Shown: in pieces, positions 3,222-56,327 of the stretch
Layout of the letters: the number at the start of each line of letters is the position of its first letter
How positions within the stretch are numbered: position 1 is the first letter of the stretch
NCBI GenBank assembly: GCA_001871445.1
Contig: MNVD01000014.1
Location: 28,776-92,775, forward strand
Length of the DNA stretch: 64,000 nucleotides
Reading direction: 5' to 3'
DNA from: Candidatus Magasanikbacteria bacterium CG1_02_41_34
Lineage (GTDB): Bacteria; Patescibacteriota; Patescibacteriia; Magasanikbacterales; UBA922
The notes under the pieces: model-generated
Databases searched by the model: none
The model's input: only the letters and a program-made list of their open reading frames with translations
Told to the model about the DNA's origin: nothing
Position numbers and translations under genes: made by a program

Positions 3222-4157
3222 ATGGCTATACAAGCAATTACCCAAAAGGCTGACTGGAAGCCACAGACACAGGAATTCCTCCAATCTTGGGAATGGGGGG
3301 AATTTCAGTGTGCTGTAGGTCATGAGCCTCTGCGACTGTTGGTTGGTGGAGAATATGTGCAGGGATTTGTGCATCGATTACCACTTGGGTTGAAATACAT
3401 TTATTTTCCACGTTGTGATATAAAAAATTGGAAATTAGAAATTTCTGATTATGCAAAAAAGAAAGGATTCCTTTTTGCACGTATAGAACCAACAAATACA
3501 ATTTTGAAATTAGAAATTCGAAATTTTAAGATTCGTTGTCGTCAACCGCAACACACACTGGTCTTTGATCTCACACAATCAGAAGATGTACTTCTCAAAA
3601 ACATGCACAGCAAGACACGTTACAATATTCGTCTTGCAGAAAAAAAAAGAGTGGAAATTCGTGAAGAAAAAAACATAGATATTTTTTGGCAGCTTAATAA
3701 TGAAACAACAGAGAGAGATACCTTCAAAAGTCATGAGAAGGCATACTATACAGCGATGTTGGAAATGTCTATCGTACACCAATTCACGGCATGGTACGAA
3801 GGAAAACCACTTGCATCAAATATTTATATCGTACATAGCGATCGCATGACATATCTCCATGGTGCTTCGTCAAATGAATATCGTAATGTCATGGCACCCT
3901 ATTTGTTGCAATGGCAGTCGTTGCTCTGGGCAAAGAAACAAGGTATACAAAAATATGATGTGTGGGGTGTGGCTGCGCCAAAAAAAGAAGGGAATACATT
4001 TCACACATACACATGGGATGAATCAGATAGATTACACAACGTGACGAGATTTAAAGCTGGTTTTGGTGGCATGACTGTATCATATCCAGACGCGTGTGAA
4101 ATTCCGCTCAAGTCTTTGTCATACAAACTTTTTCAACTAGCAAAAAAGGTTTTATGA
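3222..4157 (+). CDS. FemAB-family peptidoglycan interpeptide-bridge aminoacyltransferase.
   Basis: Fem-family segments KTRYNIRLAEKKRVEIRE and LQWQSLLWAKKQG. Start set at the ATG preceded by GGAGA (MAIQ...); the ORF track starts at 3171. Confidence 0.6.
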   Translation: MAIQAITQKADWKPQTQEFLQSWEWGEFQCAVGHEPLRLLVGGEYVQGFVHRLPLGLKYIYFPRCDIKNWKLEISDYAKKKGFLFARIEPTNTILKLEIRNFKIRCRQPQHTLVFDLTQSEDVLLKNMHSKTRYNIRLAEKKRVEIREEKNIDIFWQLNNETTERDTFKSHEKAYYTAMLEMSIVHQFTAWYEGKPLASNIYIVHSDRMTYLHGASSNEYRNVMAPYLLQWQSLLWAKKQGIQKYDVWGVAAPKKEGNTFHTYTWDESDRLHNVTRFKAGFGGMTVSYPDACEIPLKSLSYKLFQLAKKVL

Positions 4158-4687
4158 ATCAGCCGTGGACAAGCAAATTGTTTTTGAAGATAAATAGCCT
4201 AGTAGGAAGATGGTCAGTTGTTGATCTCACGATGATTTTTTCGGCTAAATATTTAATTTGGATACTCTCCCTATTTCTTTTCCTATTTTTTTTGTACGAC
4301 AACAGGTGGCGCGCTGGTTTTTTTATTGTGTGGTGTGTTGTATTCGGGACTATGTTTCTTTGTTCATTTTTTTTCAGCTATCTTATTGCTTGGCTGTTTC
4401 CACATCCACGACCGATTCGTCAGTTTCCTGATATACACGTATTGATTCGTACATGGGGGACATGGAAATCGTTTCCGTCTGATCATGCTATTGGTGCTAC
4501 TATTTTAGCCTATGGAGCCTTGCTAACACTCACTGGATCGATACGGAGTATCTTTATGGTATGTGCGGTGCTTGTCGCTGTCAGTCGTGTCTGGGTAGGT
4601 GTGCACTATCCGAGAGATATTATTGCTGGAATCGTTGTTGGCAGTACCGTGGCTCTTGTGATACAGCAGATGTTATTCATAGGTTGA
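4154..4687 (+). CDS. PAP2-family membrane phosphatase, undecaprenyl-diphosphatase-like.
   Basis: PAP2 motifs SFPSDHA and SRVWVGVHYPRD; multiple TM helices. Confidence 0.65.
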   Translation: MNQPWTSKLFLKINSLVGRWSVVDLTMIFSAKYLIWILSLFLFLFFLYDNRWRAGFFIVWCVVFGTMFLCSFFFSYLIAWLFPHPRPIRQFPDIHVLIRTWGTWKSFPSDHAIGATILAYGALLTLTGSIRSIFMVCAVLVAVSRVWVGVHYPRDIIAGIVVGSTVALVIQQMLFIG

Positions 4688-4721
4688 CCATTTGCCTTTC
4701 CTTTCGTACAATAGTCTTACT

Positions 4722-5417
4722 ATGAATGCTATTATTCTTTGTGGAGGTCTCTCCACCCGTCTTGGTGATATTACCAAGACAATTCCAAAAATCCTTCTGT
4801 CGATCGGTGACAAAACTGTTCTTGATTGGCAGCTCGATATGCTCAAAACATTGGGCGTGTCTGAAGTTGTACTCGCGGCAGGGCATCTTTCTGATGTTCT
4901 CAAAAAAGAAGTAGGAGAGCAGCGTCATGGCATGAATTTGATCCATGTAGTGGAAGAAAAAAAACTTGGCACAGGAGGTGCTATCAAGCACGCGATGAAC
5001 CATGTGTCATCTCCAGATGATGTGACACTTATTTTGAATGGAGATATTTTGACGAATATTGATCTTGTGGATATGGTATCTCGAGTCGACCAGGAGAGTG
5101 AAGGTATGCTTCTTGGTACGCGTGTCGACAATGCCTCGAGCTATGGAACGTTGGAATACGATGACTCTGGACACCTCAATGCATTCAAAGAAAAAGAAGG
5201 CATTCATACACCAGGATATATCAATGGAGGAATTTATTTGTTTACGCCACATGCAAAAAAACATTTTCCTACGGTTGATACGTTTAGTATCGAATACGAT
5301 GTTTTTCCAAATATGAAAAATTTGTATGTCTATGAATCAGAGAGTCCTTGGGTAGATGTCGGTGTTCCAGAGCGTCTCGAGTGGGCGCGAAACAATTGGC
5401 ATGTCATTCGCGCATAA
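4722..5417 (+). CDS. Sugar-phosphate nucleotidyltransferase.
   Basis: N-terminus MNAIILCGGLSTRLG is the NTP-transferase G-rich loop. Start moved to MNAI, since the ORF track start at 4692 would overlap the upstream gene. Confidence 0.7.
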   Translation: MNAIILCGGLSTRLGDITKTIPKILLSIGDKTVLDWQLDMLKTLGVSEVVLAAGHLSDVLKKEVGEQRHGMNLIHVVEEKKLGTGGAIKHAMNHVSSPDDVTLILNGDILTNIDLVDMVSRVDQESEGMLLGTRVDNASSYGTLEYDDSGHLNAFKEKEGIHTPGYINGGIYLFTPHAKKHFPTVDTFSIEYDVFPNMKNLYVYESESPWVDVGVPERLEWARNNWHVIRA

Positions 5418-5421
5418 TCAT

Positions 5422-6447
5422 ATGAAAAAGAAATTACTTCTCATCGTAGTCGGCATCCTCCTCTTTGGAGGGTTTCTTTTCTATCGAAATATCTACACCG
5501 CTATTGGGATTGAAACTGACACAAAAGTAATATCAATACCATCCGGTTTGTCTGTGAGGGAAATCGCGGTTCTTCTTGAAGAACAGGGTATTGTCCCGTC
5601 GAGTAACATCCTTGTTCGATATCTTGTATGGAAAAACATGGATACAAAAATTCAGCATGGTGATATTACGTTTGTTCCCCCACACTCCATTGCACATGTT
5701 GCTATGGAATTAGCGAATCCTCAGGGGAGAAAAGAACGAGAAATTACGTTATTACCTGGTTGGGATATACGGCAAATTGCTGAGTATTTTGAAAAAGAGG
5801 GCATTGCTTCAGCAGAAGATTTTTATCGTGCTGTCGGCACACCACTGAATGAACGTCCAAGTACGTACGACATGAGTGATGTCCCACAGTTTGATTCAAA
5901 ATCAAAGGATGCAAATCTTGAAGGATATCTGCGTCCAGATACATATCGTATTTTTGAAAGTGCAAGTGTAGATGATATTGTCGGGAAACTTGTTCACGGC
6001 AGAGCTGATCAGTTTACTGATCAGATGCTAGCAGATACCAACGTGCAGGGGAAAACTGTGCATGAGATTCTCACCATGGCAAGTATTTTGGAAAGAGAAG
6101 TGAGAACGCCAGAAGATCGACGTTTGGTATCAGATCTTTTTTGGCGTCGGTATAATATTGGTATGGCACTTCAAGCTGATTCGACCGTTCACTATATTAC
6201 CGGTACAGAAGGAAGTGTATTTACCACCAAGAATGCACGAGAGGTGGATTCCTTATGGAACACATATAAATATCCTGGATTGCCACCTGGTCCAATTAGC
6301 AACCCGTCCGTTGGTGCTATTATGGCAGCCATCTATCCAGAAAAAAATACGAATTGGTATTTTCTCACCACGTTAGACACCGGAGAAGTGAAGTATGCAA
6401 AAACACTTGATCAGCAAAATGCCAATAGTGCCACATATTTACGCTAA
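5422..6447 (+). CDS. mltG: Endolytic murein transglycosylase MltG (YceG family).
   Basis: N-terminal TM helix; YceG signature LEGYLRPDTYRIF. Start at MKKKLL to avoid overlap. Confidence 0.8.
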   Translation: MKKKLLLIVVGILLFGGFLFYRNIYTAIGIETDTKVISIPSGLSVREIAVLLEEQGIVPSSNILVRYLVWKNMDTKIQHGDITFVPPHSIAHVAMELANPQGRKEREITLLPGWDIRQIAEYFEKEGIASAEDFYRAVGTPLNERPSTYDMSDVPQFDSKSKDANLEGYLRPDTYRIFESASVDDIVGKLVHGRADQFTDQMLADTNVQGKTVHEILTMASILEREVRTPEDRRLVSDLFWRRYNIGMALQADSTVHYITGTEGSVFTTKNAREVDSLWNTYKYPGLPPGPISNPSVGAIMAAIYPEKNTNWYFLTTLDTGEVKYAKTLDQQNANSATYLR

Positions 6448-9327: not shown

Positions 9328-9759
9328 ATGGAACCAGGTCATACAGCACACACAGACATGGGAAGGTGGACTCCTATGGAAGACAATGAAGAAGACGATC
9401 GACCAAAGGGGTATGTTCCTATTGAAAAGGTGGCAGATCCACATGGATTAAATCCAGAAGAAGCATTGTTGGCAAAAGAAGCCAAAAAAGCCGGTGATGA
9501 ATTCGAAAATGGAGAAACCTCTCGTCATGATGCACCTGTTATGGGTGAGGAAGATGATGATATGGATATTGAAGATGTTGGCGAAGATCAGAAACCAGAA
9601 GACGCAGAAGAATCTCACGGCGGCAAAATGGGACTGCATAGATTGGGAGCAATGCAAGACGGTTTCGTGAAGGGAGATGCCTTTGATCGTGGAAAACAAC
9701 CACCTAATAAAGGTGTACCGAGAAGAAGAGATCTACCCAATGTTCAAGAATCTGCGTAA
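9328..9759 (+). CDS. Acidic hypothetical protein (D/E-rich).
   Basis: ORF with typical AT-rich codon usage. A terminator-like hairpin lies downstream at 9783-9806. No domain recognised. Confidence 0.3.
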   Translation: MEPGHTAHTDMGRWTPMEDNEEDDRPKGYVPIEKVADPHGLNPEEALLAKEAKKAGDEFENGETSRHDAPVMGEEDDDMDIEDVGEDQKPEDAEESHGGKMGLHRLGAMQDGFVKGDAFDRGKQPPNKGVPRRRDLPNVQESA

Positions 9760-9782
9760 TTGTACAGTAATATATGAAAAAT

Positions 9783-9806
9783 AGAGGTATATGCCTCTAT
9801 TTTTTG
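9783..9806 (+). terminator. Rho-independent terminator.
   Basis: Stem agagg/cctct followed by attttttg. Confidence 0.5.
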
Positions 9807-9894
9807 TCCAAAAGTTTTTTTGAAAAAAGTTGAGGGAGTCACAGCGCGCCCCTCAGTTCGGGGCGCGCTGTGACGAGTGTGGACGGGCGAAGTC

Positions 9895-10110
9895 TTACCG
9901 CCGCTTGCGCCAGCCCGTGGGACGGCGAGCATGTTGGTGGGAGGAGAATTTCTTCGAGCTCGTCGTGTCACGACGAGGCATCATGGGGACGTTGTTTCCC
10001 CAGGGGCTGAAGCGAGGCTTTTCTTCCCCTTCTCCGATGACATACTCCGGCGGGAAGATCCCGCTGTGGGAGTATTGTATACCAACGATGATCCTTCGCG
10101 GTTTAGGCAT
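9895..10110 (-). CDS. Small GC-rich ORF (71 aa) with a basic C-terminal tail.
   Basis: Strong RBS GGAAAGAGGAAAG before the ATG. A perfect hairpin at 9838-9874 plus a U-run lies downstream on the minus strand. GC content is visibly higher than the flanks. Confidence 0.35.
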   Translation of the reverse strand: MPKPRRIIVGIQYSHSGIFPPEYVIGEGEEKPRFSPWGNNVPMMPRRDTTSSKKFSSHQHARRPTGWRKRR

Positions 10111-10370
10111 CTTTCCTCTTTCCTTTTATTGAAGGGGTTGTTGGAGGAGGTCCGATCCATTTCAGCTTGGTGACGTTTCCGTAGGAGTCACGGAAGACAA
10201 TCAACCTTGCATGAACTTGGGTCATTGAACTCCGTTCGAAGGCACCAGTCGATACCACGCCGAATAGGCGTCGCAATCCGGAATCCTTTTTCTAGGAGTA
10301 ACGCTGCCGGCATATTGCTATAAAAAGCAAAAAAATGCAAGTTGATGCATTTTTCTGCTTTCTTTTTCAA

Positions 10371-11561
<1,191 letters not shown>

Positions 11562-11636
11562 CTAGCAAAGTTTGACCATTTTATCAATGGTGCTGTACAG
11601 TAGATACAGGTGTCTTCATCGCAGGAGGAGTACTAC

Positions 11637-12104
11637 ATGGGATCCACGAGATCGAGTAGCCCAAAGCAGATGACGAGACACCACAAAGTGCCTCGTTTCC
11701 GATGCATAAAAGGGATGCCACAGCCTGACAACGTTGTGCTCCTTGAGCGTCGGTTTCATGAGGCCTGGCATACGCTTTTTGCGGACCGAACCCCGTTCGA
11801 GATTGCTATTCTTCTCATCAAGAAGCGTTTCAATCACGGAGTAGTCAGGTCTGCCACGCTCCATGCAGCGTGGCAAGGGGGAGAAGAAACGTTTACCTAC
11901 CGATACCGACGCGATCATCCTCCATTTGAGCCCTGGACTTTCAAGGCGCCTCAGATGCGAGCGTGGCACATGCTCTTCGCTGATCGTAGCGATTACAGCG
12001 TGTTGCACGAAGTGGTGAGAGCTTCTCGTTGGTCTCCTGCTGGATATTTCCCCATGGGTCACATTGTCCTGGCGGGTGGTGGAAAGATCACGTACGGTTT
12101 TTGA
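11637..12104 (+). CDS. Small HNH-like nuclease-fold protein with an internal duplication; GC-rich.
   Basis: HHKVPR...DNVVLLERRFHEAWHTLFADRTP resembles the HNH core (HH..P...N..L..H...H). A second partial copy reads RRDHPPFEPW...RAWHMLFADRSD. AGGAGG RBS 8 nt upstream of the ATG at 11637. Confidence 0.4.
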   Translation: MGSTRSSSPKQMTRHHKVPRFRCIKGMPQPDNVVLLERRFHEAWHTLFADRTPFEIAILLIKKRFNHGVVRSATLHAAWQGGEETFTYRYRRDHPPFEPWTFKAPQMRAWHMLFADRSDYSVLHEVVRASRWSPAGYFPMGHIVLAGGGKITYGF

Positions 12105-12150
12105 TGAAGAAGGAAGGGATGGGCTACTTTCGGGTGGCCCTTTTCTCTAT

Positions 12151-12969
12151 ATGAAACAGGCTTTTTCAAAAATAAATACATTTCTCATATTTTTCAATAT
12201 TTTTCTTATGTTGAGTATTGCATATTTGTGGTATCCAACATACAAAGAGGAAAAAGATATTTCAGTATTTTATGTTGCTACCAAGGTGGAACATATAAAT
12301 ACGAAATTAGAAATTACAGATAATGTAGTAGAACAGAGTACTTCCTCAACTACATCAACCATTGATGTTCCACTAGATAGTGTCAGCACACCAATCGTTC
12401 TTTCTCCAACAATCAATCTTTCTGTTCCTTTCACATCGCAGGCACCCGAAGCAAATTGGGATCAGCCGTGGCAAGACGCATGTGAAGAAGCGGCGATTCT
12501 TATGCTTGATGCATATTACAAGGGATATACTTTGAGTCCACTTTTTGCAAAAGACGAATTATTAAAAATGGTGGCATGGGAAGAACAAAAATCGTGGGGG
12601 TATAGTATTCCTCTCGTAGATGTTCAGAAAGTGTCAGAGTGGTACATGGGAAATTCATTTTCATTTCATATACAAAAAGAACCGTCGATAGAAGGAATCA
12701 AACAAACCCTTGCAGCAGGAAATCCTGTGTTGGTTGTTGCATATGGGAAGTTACTCGAGAATCCAAACTTTCGTGAAGGTGGACCGGAATATCATGCATT
12801 GATTATTCGTGGGTACAATCAAGATGGGTTTATTACGAATGATCCTGGAACGAGAAATGGAAAAGAATTTTTTTACACATATGATAATTTGATGAGTAGT
12901 ATTCATGATTGGAACGGGGGAGATGTTGAACATGGCGATGCTGTAGTACTTGTTGTAGAACGGTTGTAG
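12151..12969 (+). CDS. Secreted or membrane-anchored protein with a C-terminal peptidase-C39-like (BtrH/DUF3335-like) domain.
   Basis: N-terminal TM helix, an S/T-rich linker, and a C-terminal region with a conserved Cys and ...YHALIIRGYNQDGFITNDPG. Confidence 0.4.
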   Translation: MKQAFSKINTFLIFFNIFLMLSIAYLWYPTYKEEKDISVFYVATKVEHINTKLEITDNVVEQSTSSTTSTIDVPLDSVSTPIVLSPTINLSVPFTSQAPEANWDQPWQDACEEAAILMLDAYYKGYTLSPLFAKDELLKMVAWEEQKSWGYSIPLVDVQKVSEWYMGNSFSFHIQKEPSIEGIKQTLAAGNPVLVVAYGKLLENPNFREGGPEYHALIIRGYNQDGFITNDPGTRNGKEFFYTYDNLMSSIHDWNGGDVEHGDAVVLVVERL

Positions 12970-42621: not shown

Positions 42622-43065
42622 CTACTCGATCAAGATTCCGCCAAATGAACATCGCTCCATGCCGAGCGGTCGTTCGAGTTGGAATCCCGTGTCTGTCTTG
42701 ACGAGGTCAGACACGTACACATGAAAAGATGGCGTACACTTCGCGACACAGACCCCTTCGCTCTCGTAGAGCTCTAGAGTGCATTGCCCCGTGGTACCGA
42801 TGCCATTCTCGAGCGCACATGTGATGGTGTCACCGATGTGCTCGTAGAGCCACGGGTAGGTCTCACAGCCCTGCGCCGCGGGGACCGTGTCAGCCGCCTT
42901 CGGGATCGACGACGTGTCGGTCGGGTAGGGGCTGTCGGCCTTGCCGGAATCGGAGGAGTACGTGTCACTCCCGGCTTGGCCCGGGCTGTTGTCTCCACAC
43001 GCGGTGAAGGGAAAGAACAGGAGAGCCGCCAGGATGGCGGCGAAGGTGGTCAGCTGCTGGATCAT
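42622..43065 (-). CDS. GC-rich putative lipoprotein (148 aa, 6 Cys).
   Basis: AAGGAG RBS 8 nt before the ATG (MIQQLTTFAAILAALLFFPFTAC). Lipobox-like FTAC. The segment is visibly GC-rich; overlapping antisense ORFs are judged artefacts. Confidence 0.45.
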   Translation of the reverse strand: MIQQLTTFAAILAALLFFPFTACGDNSPGQAGSDTYSSDSGKADSPYPTDTSSIPKAADTVPAAQGCETYPWLYEHIGDTITCALENGIGTTGQCTLELYESEGVCVAKCTPSFHVYVSDLVKTDTGFQLERPLGMERCSFGGILIE

Positions 43066-43363
43066 GGCGGTCGCTCCTTGTCCCGACTGAGTCGGGACGG
43101 AAAGGGAAGGGTTGAGTTCGGACAGACGATGACACATCATCATTTCTCGGAACCCAATCCTTCTGTAGTGGAGGACGCCTTGTTGTTCTTCTCACACACC
43201 ATTATGTGATATCCCATATCCATATATGACATATAGGTAAAGGATACGATTGAAAAAGAACGAGATATATATTTCCCTCAGAAGAGAAACATTCCTCCAA
43301 ATTGAGCATAGTATAAAAAATATGATTTGTCAATATGTCAAGGGGATAACATTCTTCACGTAA

Positions 43364-56190: not shown

Positions 56191-56240
56191 GTGTTTTTTT
56201 GTATAAAAAAAACAAAGTTGTATATGACTTTGTTTTTTTG

Positions 56241-56327
56241 CGGAGAGTGGAGGATTCGAACCCCCGGTCCTCTTTCAAGGACGACAGTTTAGTAAACTGC
56301 TGCTATAGACCGCTCAGCCAACTCTCC
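56241..56327 (-). tRNA. Class II tRNA (long variable arm), Ser-type; anticodon reads ACU in my fold, which is unusual.
   Basis: GGAGAGTTGGCTGAGCGGTCTATAGCAGCAGTTTACTAAACTGTCGTCCTTGAAAGAGGACCGGGGGTTCGAATCCTCCACTCTCCG. Discriminator G, T-loop TTCGAAT. Anticodon stem GCAGT/ACTGT with loop TTACTAA. Confidence 0.55.

Follow-up and report, generated by a model that had tools for sequence, protein, structure and literature searches.

A divergent two-module HNH-like protein gene in a variable slot beside tgt in a Candidatus Magasanikbacteria genome: a candidate homing-type nuclease cassette

A stretch of 64,000 nucleotides from Candidatus Magasanikbacteria bacterium CG1_02_41_34 (GenBank assembly GCA_001871445.1, contig MNVD01000014.1, positions 28,776 to 92,775 of the forward strand; hereafter the window) carries, beside the tRNA-guanine transglycosylase gene tgt, a gene for a 155-aa, two-module, HNH-like protein. 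Gene and protein, encoded at 11637..12104 on the plus strand, are here called X. Related loci are designated by L-numbers, with the window as the reference for their identity figures. Among close relatives the slot beside tgt is either empty or filled by divergent alleles, and the variable unit is X together with its 5' leader, between a conserved promoter region and a conserved terminator. Judged by a transitive profile link and a structural model, X is a relative of the HNH superfamily with a complete predicted catalytic set. Its family, one-and-a-half-module in architecture and tied to tgt, is in none of the libraries queried. The best current explanation, in which we place somewhat less than even confidence, is that X is a free-standing, probably nicking, HNH homing-type nuclease cassette, a function predicted from its sequence and model.

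X adjoins tgt divergently in 12 of the 13 loci with readable upstream context, namely the window, L001/L002/L004, L003 (with its 77-kb JGI counterpart), L006, L007, L008, L010, L011, L013/L015, L093, L094 and L095; the exception is L005. This linkage is kept down to 28-33% identity, and also where the far side of tgt differs. The usual downstream neighbour is a Peptidase_C39_2 protein (C39), and in L001 and L010 UvrD directly follows X. In the window, tgt occupies 10371..11540 on the minus strand (an open reading frame, ORF, with the Pfam TGT domain recognized in orthologous loci), and the C39 gene occupies 12151..12969 on the plus strand (PF13529, E 7.7e-12), its product bearing an N-terminal hydrophobic segment. 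The initial annotation of this region, which had placed the gene between tgt and a C39-like protein, was correct on this point.

Occupancy of the slot is sporadic. Metagenome contigs were scanned with tgt as the anchor, and a hidden Markov model (HMM) search of the 80 resulting loci detected X in only 2. Three groups of relatives have an empty slot, with about 4 kb covered on each side. L012/L016 show a clean tgt-C39 spacer of ~68 bp, with TGT 90%, UvrD 90% and queA 88% identical to the window; L014/L045 show a clean spacer of ~68 bp as well, with TGT at 85-90% depending on the alignment and UvrD at 93%; the spacer of L018 is longer, at roughly 100 bp. The slot is filled in the window, in L013/L015 and in L092, and the divergence of the flanks is comparable between filled and empty loci. 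In two more distant relatives, with TGT at 63-67% identity, the slot upstream of tgt holds unrelated genes (a plus-strand ORF of ~230 aa in L020 and, in L019, an ORF on the minus strand whose product is hydrophobic at the N-terminus), so that the interval between tgt and uvrD is a general variable region.

The filled alleles differ from one another far more than their surroundings do. Between L013/L015 and the window, TGT is 89% identical over aligned residues, nucleotide identity across tgt is ~85%, and identity at 4-fold sites is 60% in TGT and 48% in C39. X, by comparison, is only 46% identical, with 37% identity at third positions. At 4-fold sites the same pair agrees in 5/28 positions of X (18%) against 125/224 in the flanks (56%; Fisher p=1.9e-4). 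On the 692-bp contig L092, X (P0009) is 49% identical to the window protein, and the upstream junction matches the window at 17/17 nucleotides (TATCAATGGTGCTGTAC). The right junction, running from the terminator into the first C39 codons, is identical at 61/64 positions in L092 and at 58/65 in L013. Divergence of the alleles starts just past the promoter and stops at the terminator hairpin.

Both boundaries coincide with recognizable signals. A consensus scan of the divergent tgt/X intergenic region located a sigma-70-like promoter, TTGACC-18 nt-TACAGT, at 11572..11601 on the plus strand. A terminator-like hairpin, GGGCTAC-TTTCGG-GTGGCCC with a T-rich tail, was found by scanning at 12121..12150 on the same strand, where it ends at the C39 start codon; its pairing is kept by compensatory changes in L092 and L013. 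The same pattern extends across clades, where the left junction is 81-88% identical, the right junction 73-95% and the ORF ~55-65% at the nucleotide level.

The empty slots, together with alleles older than the chromosome around them, indicate a cassette that has been gained, lost and replaced by recombination through its conserved flanks. From the sequence comparisons, much of the history of X may nevertheless have been vertical, with losses and allelic replacement. A mobile element that delivered the whole GC-rich islet, as proposed initially, is not borne out: the slot and its junctions are ancient, and the only variable unit is the gene with its leader, which rules out a recent arrival within a larger element. 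The flanking direct repeats for which the initial annotation proposed to look were not found; a search for direct or inverted repeats or target-site duplications around X returned only short chance matches. Phage or viral origin also finds no support, since neither 50,697 phage records nor the IMG/VR contigs contained X. No consistent polymorphism at the 5' end of tgt, sought as a possible protected target, separates filled from empty alleles.

X has the properties of a protein gene under constraint. The reading frame runs from ATG 11637 to TGA 12102-12104 and encodes a protein of pI 10.4, and direct reading of the sequence confirmed the Shine-Dalgarno element AGGAGG (11623..11628, plus strand) placed 8 nt before the start codon by the initial annotation. 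One gene caller chose a longer GTG-11610 start (P0001, 164 aa), which is less likely because homologues begin at MG(S/K/T) and the ribosome-binding site fits ATG 11637. A search of 5.8 billion proteins returned seven relatives at 46-100% identity with 45 invariant columns, and a profile run against 1.84 billion cluster representatives yielded 466 matches at E<=1e-3. About 40 of the latter are full-length, at roughly 160 aa; the remainder are proteins of 70-100 aa that match only residues 10-66. Homologues reach down to 28% identity. The AlphaFold2 model, built on a 38-sequence alignment, has a pLDDT of 94.7 and a pTM of 0.88. Between alleles, identity by codon position follows the order p2>p1>p3, which indicates purifying selection on the sense frame and not decay, and the reading frame is open in all full-length copies recovered from tgt-linked loci. 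On this comparative evidence, plus-strand X is a real and independently expressed protein gene.

Assignment of this protein to the HNH (His-Me finger) superfamily is transitive. The initial annotation had proposed an HNH-like protein to be checked with the HNH, HNH_5 and Endonuclease_7 models, and no direct match to these was obtained: X matched nothing in Pfam, NCBIfam or PHROGs at E<=10, the curated HNH models PF01844, PF14279, PF13391, PF13395 and Endonuclease_7 included. PADLOC defence models gave no match at E<=1 for X, P0009 or P0012, the profile of X itself matched no PDB sequence, and whole-chain fold searches with the model returned no significant match. The connection runs through short relatives that are clearly related to X and that match HNH models weakly. 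These one-module proteins are homologous to the N-terminal part of X at E 1e-9 to 1e-6 (1.84 billion proteins), and a profile built from them (alignment A2) matches X at E 1.7e-22 in a local search. Pfam HNH (PF01844) is weakly matched by 29 of 50 one-module relatives (best E 4.7e-5) and HNH_5 by 14 of the 50; others match AHH, HNH_2 or WHH. One short relative also gives a weak tblastn match to HNH homing endonucleases of T4-like phages.

Profile searches of the PDB point the same way. A2 and A5, a profile into which the N-modules of the X family were merged, retrieved almost exclusively HNH nucleases: IscB (E 7.8e-4 and 0.011), Cas8f-HNH, a group II intron maturase, pyocin AP41, colicin E7/E9 and McrA. 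In the alignments to IscB, Cas8f-HNH, pyocin AP41 and colicin E7/E9, the HH, N, H and H positions coincide with the catalytic motif, and the spacing of the motif is 16/9/4 in X against 15/9/4 in the pyocin AP41 DNase.

The HNH fold consists of a beta hairpin followed by a helix that bears metal ligands, with the catalytic histidine at the end of strand 1. In the AlphaFold2 model of X, the DSSP assignment gives this order in residues 12-48 (11670..11780, plus strand): strands at 12-16 and 33-37 and a helix at 38-48. H15-H16 lie on strand 1, N32 stands just before strand 2, and H41 and H45 are on the helix. All 38 family members have H16, H41 and H45, and conservation of H15 and N32 is 90% or higher, in an alignment whose mean column identity is 24%. 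The beta-beta-alpha-metal motif assigned to the N-terminal part by the initial annotation is thus supported both by the model and by the in-register profile alignments. Cys4 or Cys3His zinc pairs flank the core in many, though not all, HNH families. X has one cysteine, C23, which varies within the family, and its putative metal site consists of histidines only, so of the zinc finger plus beta-beta-alpha fold suggested earlier, the fold is seen in the model and the zinc finger is not. A search of the literature on HNH proteins in Patescibacteria and on free-standing HNH homing endonucleases found nothing on the X family.

The second module is a degenerate duplicate of the first. Both strings quoted in the initial annotation, HHKVPR...DNVVLLERRFHEAWHTLF and DHPPFEPW...RAWHMLFADRSD, are present in the translation, and the latter had been taken as a second, degenerate HNH copy. 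An hhalign comparison of the N-terminal and C-terminal halves of the family gave a probability of 98.9 and E 2.3e-17, aligning residues ~32-84 (copy 1, 11730..11888, plus strand) with residues ~98-152 (copy 2, 11928..12092, plus strand). In the model, DSSP assigns H38-48, H53-64, E70-79 and E82-89 to copy 1, which includes the catalytic helix, and H104-114, H119-128, E140-145 and E150-154 to copy 2, the same succession of two helices and a beta hairpin. Copy 2 is marked by an AWxxLF helix and an RWSPxGYF strand; across the 38-member alignment F114 and W132 are invariant and P134 is near-invariant. It has no HH hairpin and no conserved histidines or metal ligands. The duplication itself was therefore upheld, and the idea that it provides a second HNH core was not.

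Relatives with other module combinations exist: P0029, P0042, P0053 and P0087 have two full modules, and the short relatives P0050 and P0055 contain a mini-repeat with a second AWxxLF. We infer that the modules would act in pairs, X being a single-chain pseudo-dimer with one active site. Given one catalytic centre in such a pseudo-dimer, nicking or asymmetric site recognition is predicted, and not symmetric double-strand cutting.

Base composition sets X apart from its surroundings in every locus examined. Its GC content is 0.53 and its GC at third codon positions (GC3) is 0.55, against a window mean GC3 of 0.344 (sd 0.080, 49 ORFs), in agreement with the GC-rich codon usage first reported for the gene. 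Over all loci, the GC3 of X ranges from 0.41 to 0.81 and that of the neighbouring genes from 0.19 to 0.49. The individual values for X and its neighbours are 0.55 vs 0.29-0.33 in the window, 0.62 vs 0.31-0.34 in L001, 0.73 vs 0.27-0.38 in L003, 0.45 vs 0.19-0.34 in L005, 0.81 vs 0.49 in L006, 0.51 vs 0.27-0.45 in L007, 0.41 vs 0.36 in L008, 0.71 vs 0.40 in L009, 0.65 vs 0.30-0.34 in L010, 0.61 vs 0.48 in L011 and 0.62 vs 0.30-0.42 in L013. Because synonymous sites of the hosts are mutually saturated across most of these genomes, the excess is not a relic awaiting amelioration, and this suggests that some force continually drives the GC3 of X up. The gene might be imported again and again from GC-richer sources, conversion at a recombination-prone locus might favour GC, or selection might act, for instance to keep translation of a dangerous nuclease poor. 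The GC3 excess is the least explained feature of X. A second strong composition outlier was seen in the window at 42622-43143 on the minus strand, a 173-aa ORF with GC 0.60 and GC3 0.74 that has a lipoprotein-like signal (..FFPFTACGDNS) and no Pfam match; accessory genes rich in GC may recur in this genome.

The homing-type explanation would accommodate these features as follows. H16, at the end of strand 1, would be the putative general base, N32 the putative brace of the hairpin, and H15, H41 and H45 the putative metal ligands, in the manner of the colicin and pyocin DNases. With no active site in the C-terminal module, the single chain would mimic a dimer of one-module relatives. X would cut or nick chromosomes that carry an empty slot or a different allele near tgt, and would be copied in during recombinational repair of the cut. 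Repeated conversion at the locus, or GC-richer donors, could then be the source of the raised GC3. Searches of Pfam, NCBIfam and PHROGs revealed no accessory DNA-binding module in X (NUMOD, IENR1, HTH and similar), and the degenerate repeat, in a protein of pI 10.4, is the only candidate for that role. Of the original suggestion of a homing-endonuclease remnant, a homing-like role remains the best current reading; X does not look like a remnant, its reading frames being intact and its catalytic residues conserved.

Several observations weigh against this explanation. No pair of loci has X more similar than its flanks, and so there is no evidence of recent transfer. The discordant history expected of a homing gene is clear in one pair, the window against L013/L015 (18% vs 56% at 4-fold sites), and there it depends on 28 sites in X; most other pairs are saturated. 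The classical homing life cycle predicts some degenerate copies, and none was found in the recovered loci. Across deeper clades the identity of X roughly tracks that of TGT. As a rule, mobile DNA is richer in AT than the host, not in GC, and the searches of phage records and viral contigs did not yield X. Finally, X could lie elsewhere in the empty-slot genomes, beyond the ~4 kb covered on each side.

The main rival is that X is an accessory cellular nuclease in a variable hot spot beside tgt, active in defence against phage or foreign DNA or in the processing of DNA that has been taken up, and not a selfish gene. Frequency-dependent or diversifying selection would then maintain divergent and null alleles, and ordinary homologous recombination through the conserved flanks would shuffle them. 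We regard this account as possible, if on balance unlikely. It would give the same presence/absence pattern and the same ancient alleles, and it sits well with the intact state of all X copies and their conserved catalytic residues, with the unrelated genes that take the slot in L019 and L020, and with a UvrD/PcrA gene just downstream, directly after X in L001 and L010. Nevertheless, X matches no PADLOC model and has no partner gene, and a strict linkage to tgt (12/13), maintained while other neighbours change, is unexpected for a generic hot-spot gene.

A quite improbable alternative is that X is ancestral, inherited vertically and lost several times, its old appearance in one pair reflecting a locally raised mutation rate or relaxed constraint. 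The broad agreement of X and TGT identities between clades, the lack of detected recent transfers and a position kept down to 28% identity would all be expected under such a history. It is contradicted by the contrast at 4-fold sites between X and the adjacent sequence in the window and L015, with its sharp limits at promoter and terminator, and by the codon-position pattern, which is that of purifying selection and not of decay. The GC3 excess in all hosts speaks against it too, since mutual synonymous saturation argues that this is not a relic awaiting amelioration.

It is very unlikely that X is a DNase toxin of the colicin/pyocin kind or an addiction module, with the C-terminal repeat or an unlinked protein as the inhibitor. 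The all-His HNH motif, its pyocin-like spacing and the weak profile matches to colicin E7/E9 and pyocin AP41 recall such toxins, as do the divergent alleles at one locus, which are typical of toxin-immunity pairs. However, the matches to the colicin and pyocin DNases are marginal (E 0.07-0.9, and 0.1-0.9 for the colicins), and X has no signal peptide, translocation or receptor domain, nor any N-terminal domain beyond ~10 residues. No small immunity gene lies downstream, where the next gene is C39_2 or UvrD; each of these occurs without X, and X occurs without C39.

Functional coupling of X to tgt, either as a nuclease that deals with tRNA or DNA marked or protected by 7-deazaguanine or as a factor of the queuosine pathway, seems to us highly unlikely. 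The divergent tgt-X pair in 12/13 loci, even where the far side of tgt differs, invites this proposal, and queA and a Vut_1 (YhhQ-like) transporter gene are near in several loci. Yet close relatives with intact queA and tgt have no X within ~4 kb flanks, L005 has X without tgt nearby, and X resembles no queuosine enzyme; the linkage is explained equally well by a homing target in or beside tgt. As a missing enzyme of the pathway, such as a substitute for epoxyqueuosine reductase, X was ruled out by the relatives that have queA and tgt without X and by the lack of cofactor motifs. A related conjecture is that the 7-deazaguanine (queuosine/preQ) chemistry of TGT sets the substrate of X, with TGT as a protective or licensing partner in a two-gene self/non-self or tRNA-targeting module. 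We rate this as a long shot, and we know of no HNH enzyme for which a TGT-licensed choice of substrate has been described.

That the region is not a protein gene at all, and encodes instead a GC-rich structured RNA or a gene in the antisense ORF 11616-12062, has practically no chance of being right and is already effectively refuted by homologue conservation, the model and the broken antisense frame. GC-rich islets in AT-rich genomes are frequently RNA genes, and the sense strand of X folds somewhat better than shuffled sequences; the z-score is modest, at -2.74, and there is no Rfam match, so a structured RNA gene was ruled out. The antisense ORF, named in the initial annotation as the reading that could displace X, does exist in the window, with 148 codons. 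Its longest open stretch shrinks to 66 codons in L007, 50 in L008 and 48 in L005, where the GC3 of X is lowest. Being open only where GC3 is high, it is explained as a by-product of GC richness and was rejected as the true gene. Its sole family match, to FYTT in Pfam (E 0.17), is at chance level and below the cut-off, and the invariant motifs and the confidently modelled fold lie in the sense frame.

Read as a homing-type cassette, X most resembles the Mob genes of T4-like phages (MobE and others). T4 mobE cuts genomes that lack it and then mobilizes itself together with flanking DNA (PMC2790892, PMC2988022). Both Mob genes and X are stand-alone HNH genes in an intergenic slot beside a conserved gene, both are sporadic among close relatives, and recombination, which moves Mob genes together with flanking DNA, would move X likewise. 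X differs in that it lies in a cellular chromosome, is smaller, and has a degenerate internal repeat in place of a recognizable DNA-binding module; its homing is proposed from comparative data, and the search of phage records detected no similarity to X itself. Nicking HNH endonucleases such as I-HmuI, I-PfoP3I (PMC3428280) and SciA of phage T5 (PDB 9qgx) carry other DNA-binding extensions, and for X nicking is a prediction.

In its predicted active site X resembles the DNases of colicin E7/E9 and pyocin AP41, which share the arrangement HH...DN...H...H, an all-His metal site and the lack of a Cys4 zinc ribbon. X differs from them in having no immunity gene and no delivery domains, and the regions outside the 35-residue core are unrelated. 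Among PDB sequences, the family profile (HHIVPRSRxG...N...H..H) matches the HNH domains of IscB/Cas9 and Cas8f-HNH best; those are domains of RNA-guided effectors, whereas X stands alone, without a guide RNA or CRISPR context. The one-module proteins of 70-100 aa in A2, with the pattern HHxxPRSRGG..N..H.AWH.LFGN.TP.E, are homologous to the N-module of X including the helix after the core. They mostly have a single module, would have to pair up to resemble X, and belong to no curated family, their HNH matches lying below threshold.

The catalytic core of X is of a known kind; absent from all libraries queried are the family, the one-and-a-half-module build and the behaviour of X as a tgt-tied cassette in a cellular chromosome. 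Should the homing explanation hold, X would represent a free-standing HNH homing-type family residing in the chromosomes of small-genome bacteria and not in phages, introns or inteins. The family would be linked to a single conserved gene, tgt, and have the build of a single-chain pseudo-dimer with one active site. At 155 aa it would be a very small, probably site-specific nickase scaffold. It would also serve as a natural marker of DNA exchange and recombination in organisms not yet genetically tractable, and as a test case for repeated gene conversion as a driver of local GC enrichment in AT-rich genomes. Even on a cautious reading, X belongs to an uncatalogued protein family with ~40 two-module representatives and several hundred one-module relatives.

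Further features were noted in the intergenic regions on either side of X, which has no paralogue elsewhere within the window. A 6-bp inverted repeat, ACCATT-N5-AATGGT, lies at 11575-11591 and overlaps the -35 element of the X promoter. L013 keeps it, and the short contig L092 begins with its right arm; the divergent tgt and X promoters could have this repeat as a common operator. On the other side (12105-12150), the C39_2 start codon of the filled alleles comes directly after the X terminator, with no space for a promoter of its own, so that expression of C39_2 may need read-through from X. In the empty alleles (L012, 3900-4000, and L014) the conserved ~68-bp spacer has TG-n-TATGAT just upstream of C39. 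Filled alleles from the clade of the window agree completely over the first ~36 nt of C39, and the empty ones differ there.

L005 (CAZQEI010000003.1), the one locus in which an X homologue lies away from tgt, has beside that homologue a gene of 793 aa (3342-5723, minus strand) with 63% GC and a GC3 of 0.85 in a genome of ~35% GC. A lipoprotein-like signal peptide stands at its start, and the gene has the appearance of a recent acquisition of foreign DNA. The GenBank metagenome-assembled genomes of L004 and L005 are labelled 'uncultured Gammaproteobacteria bacterium'; their gene content and GC of ~35-42% are rather of the Patescibacteria type, and they may be mislabelled bins.

Two other observations concern the window itself. 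A first GC-rich islet, reaching 57% GC, occupies 9770-10260, between a 143-aa acidic ORF (9328-9759) and the 3' end of tgt. It has no convincing ORF and no Rfam match, contains a perfect 15-bp hairpin (GTCACAGCGCGCCCC-N7-GGGGCGCGCTGTGAC) and folds far better than shuffled sequences on the two strands (z -5.85 and -6.92). Only 75 nt of it (9777-9850) are conserved in the closest relative, L012/L016; the islet could represent a structured RNA that has escaped annotation, or else a palindromic element. At 56240-56327 on the minus strand, ARAGORN called a tRNA-Ser with anticodon ACT next to tRNA-Ser(GCT) and tRNA-Ser(TGA). A serine tRNA with A34 is unusual in bacteria, and this one may be a miscall or a variant gene.

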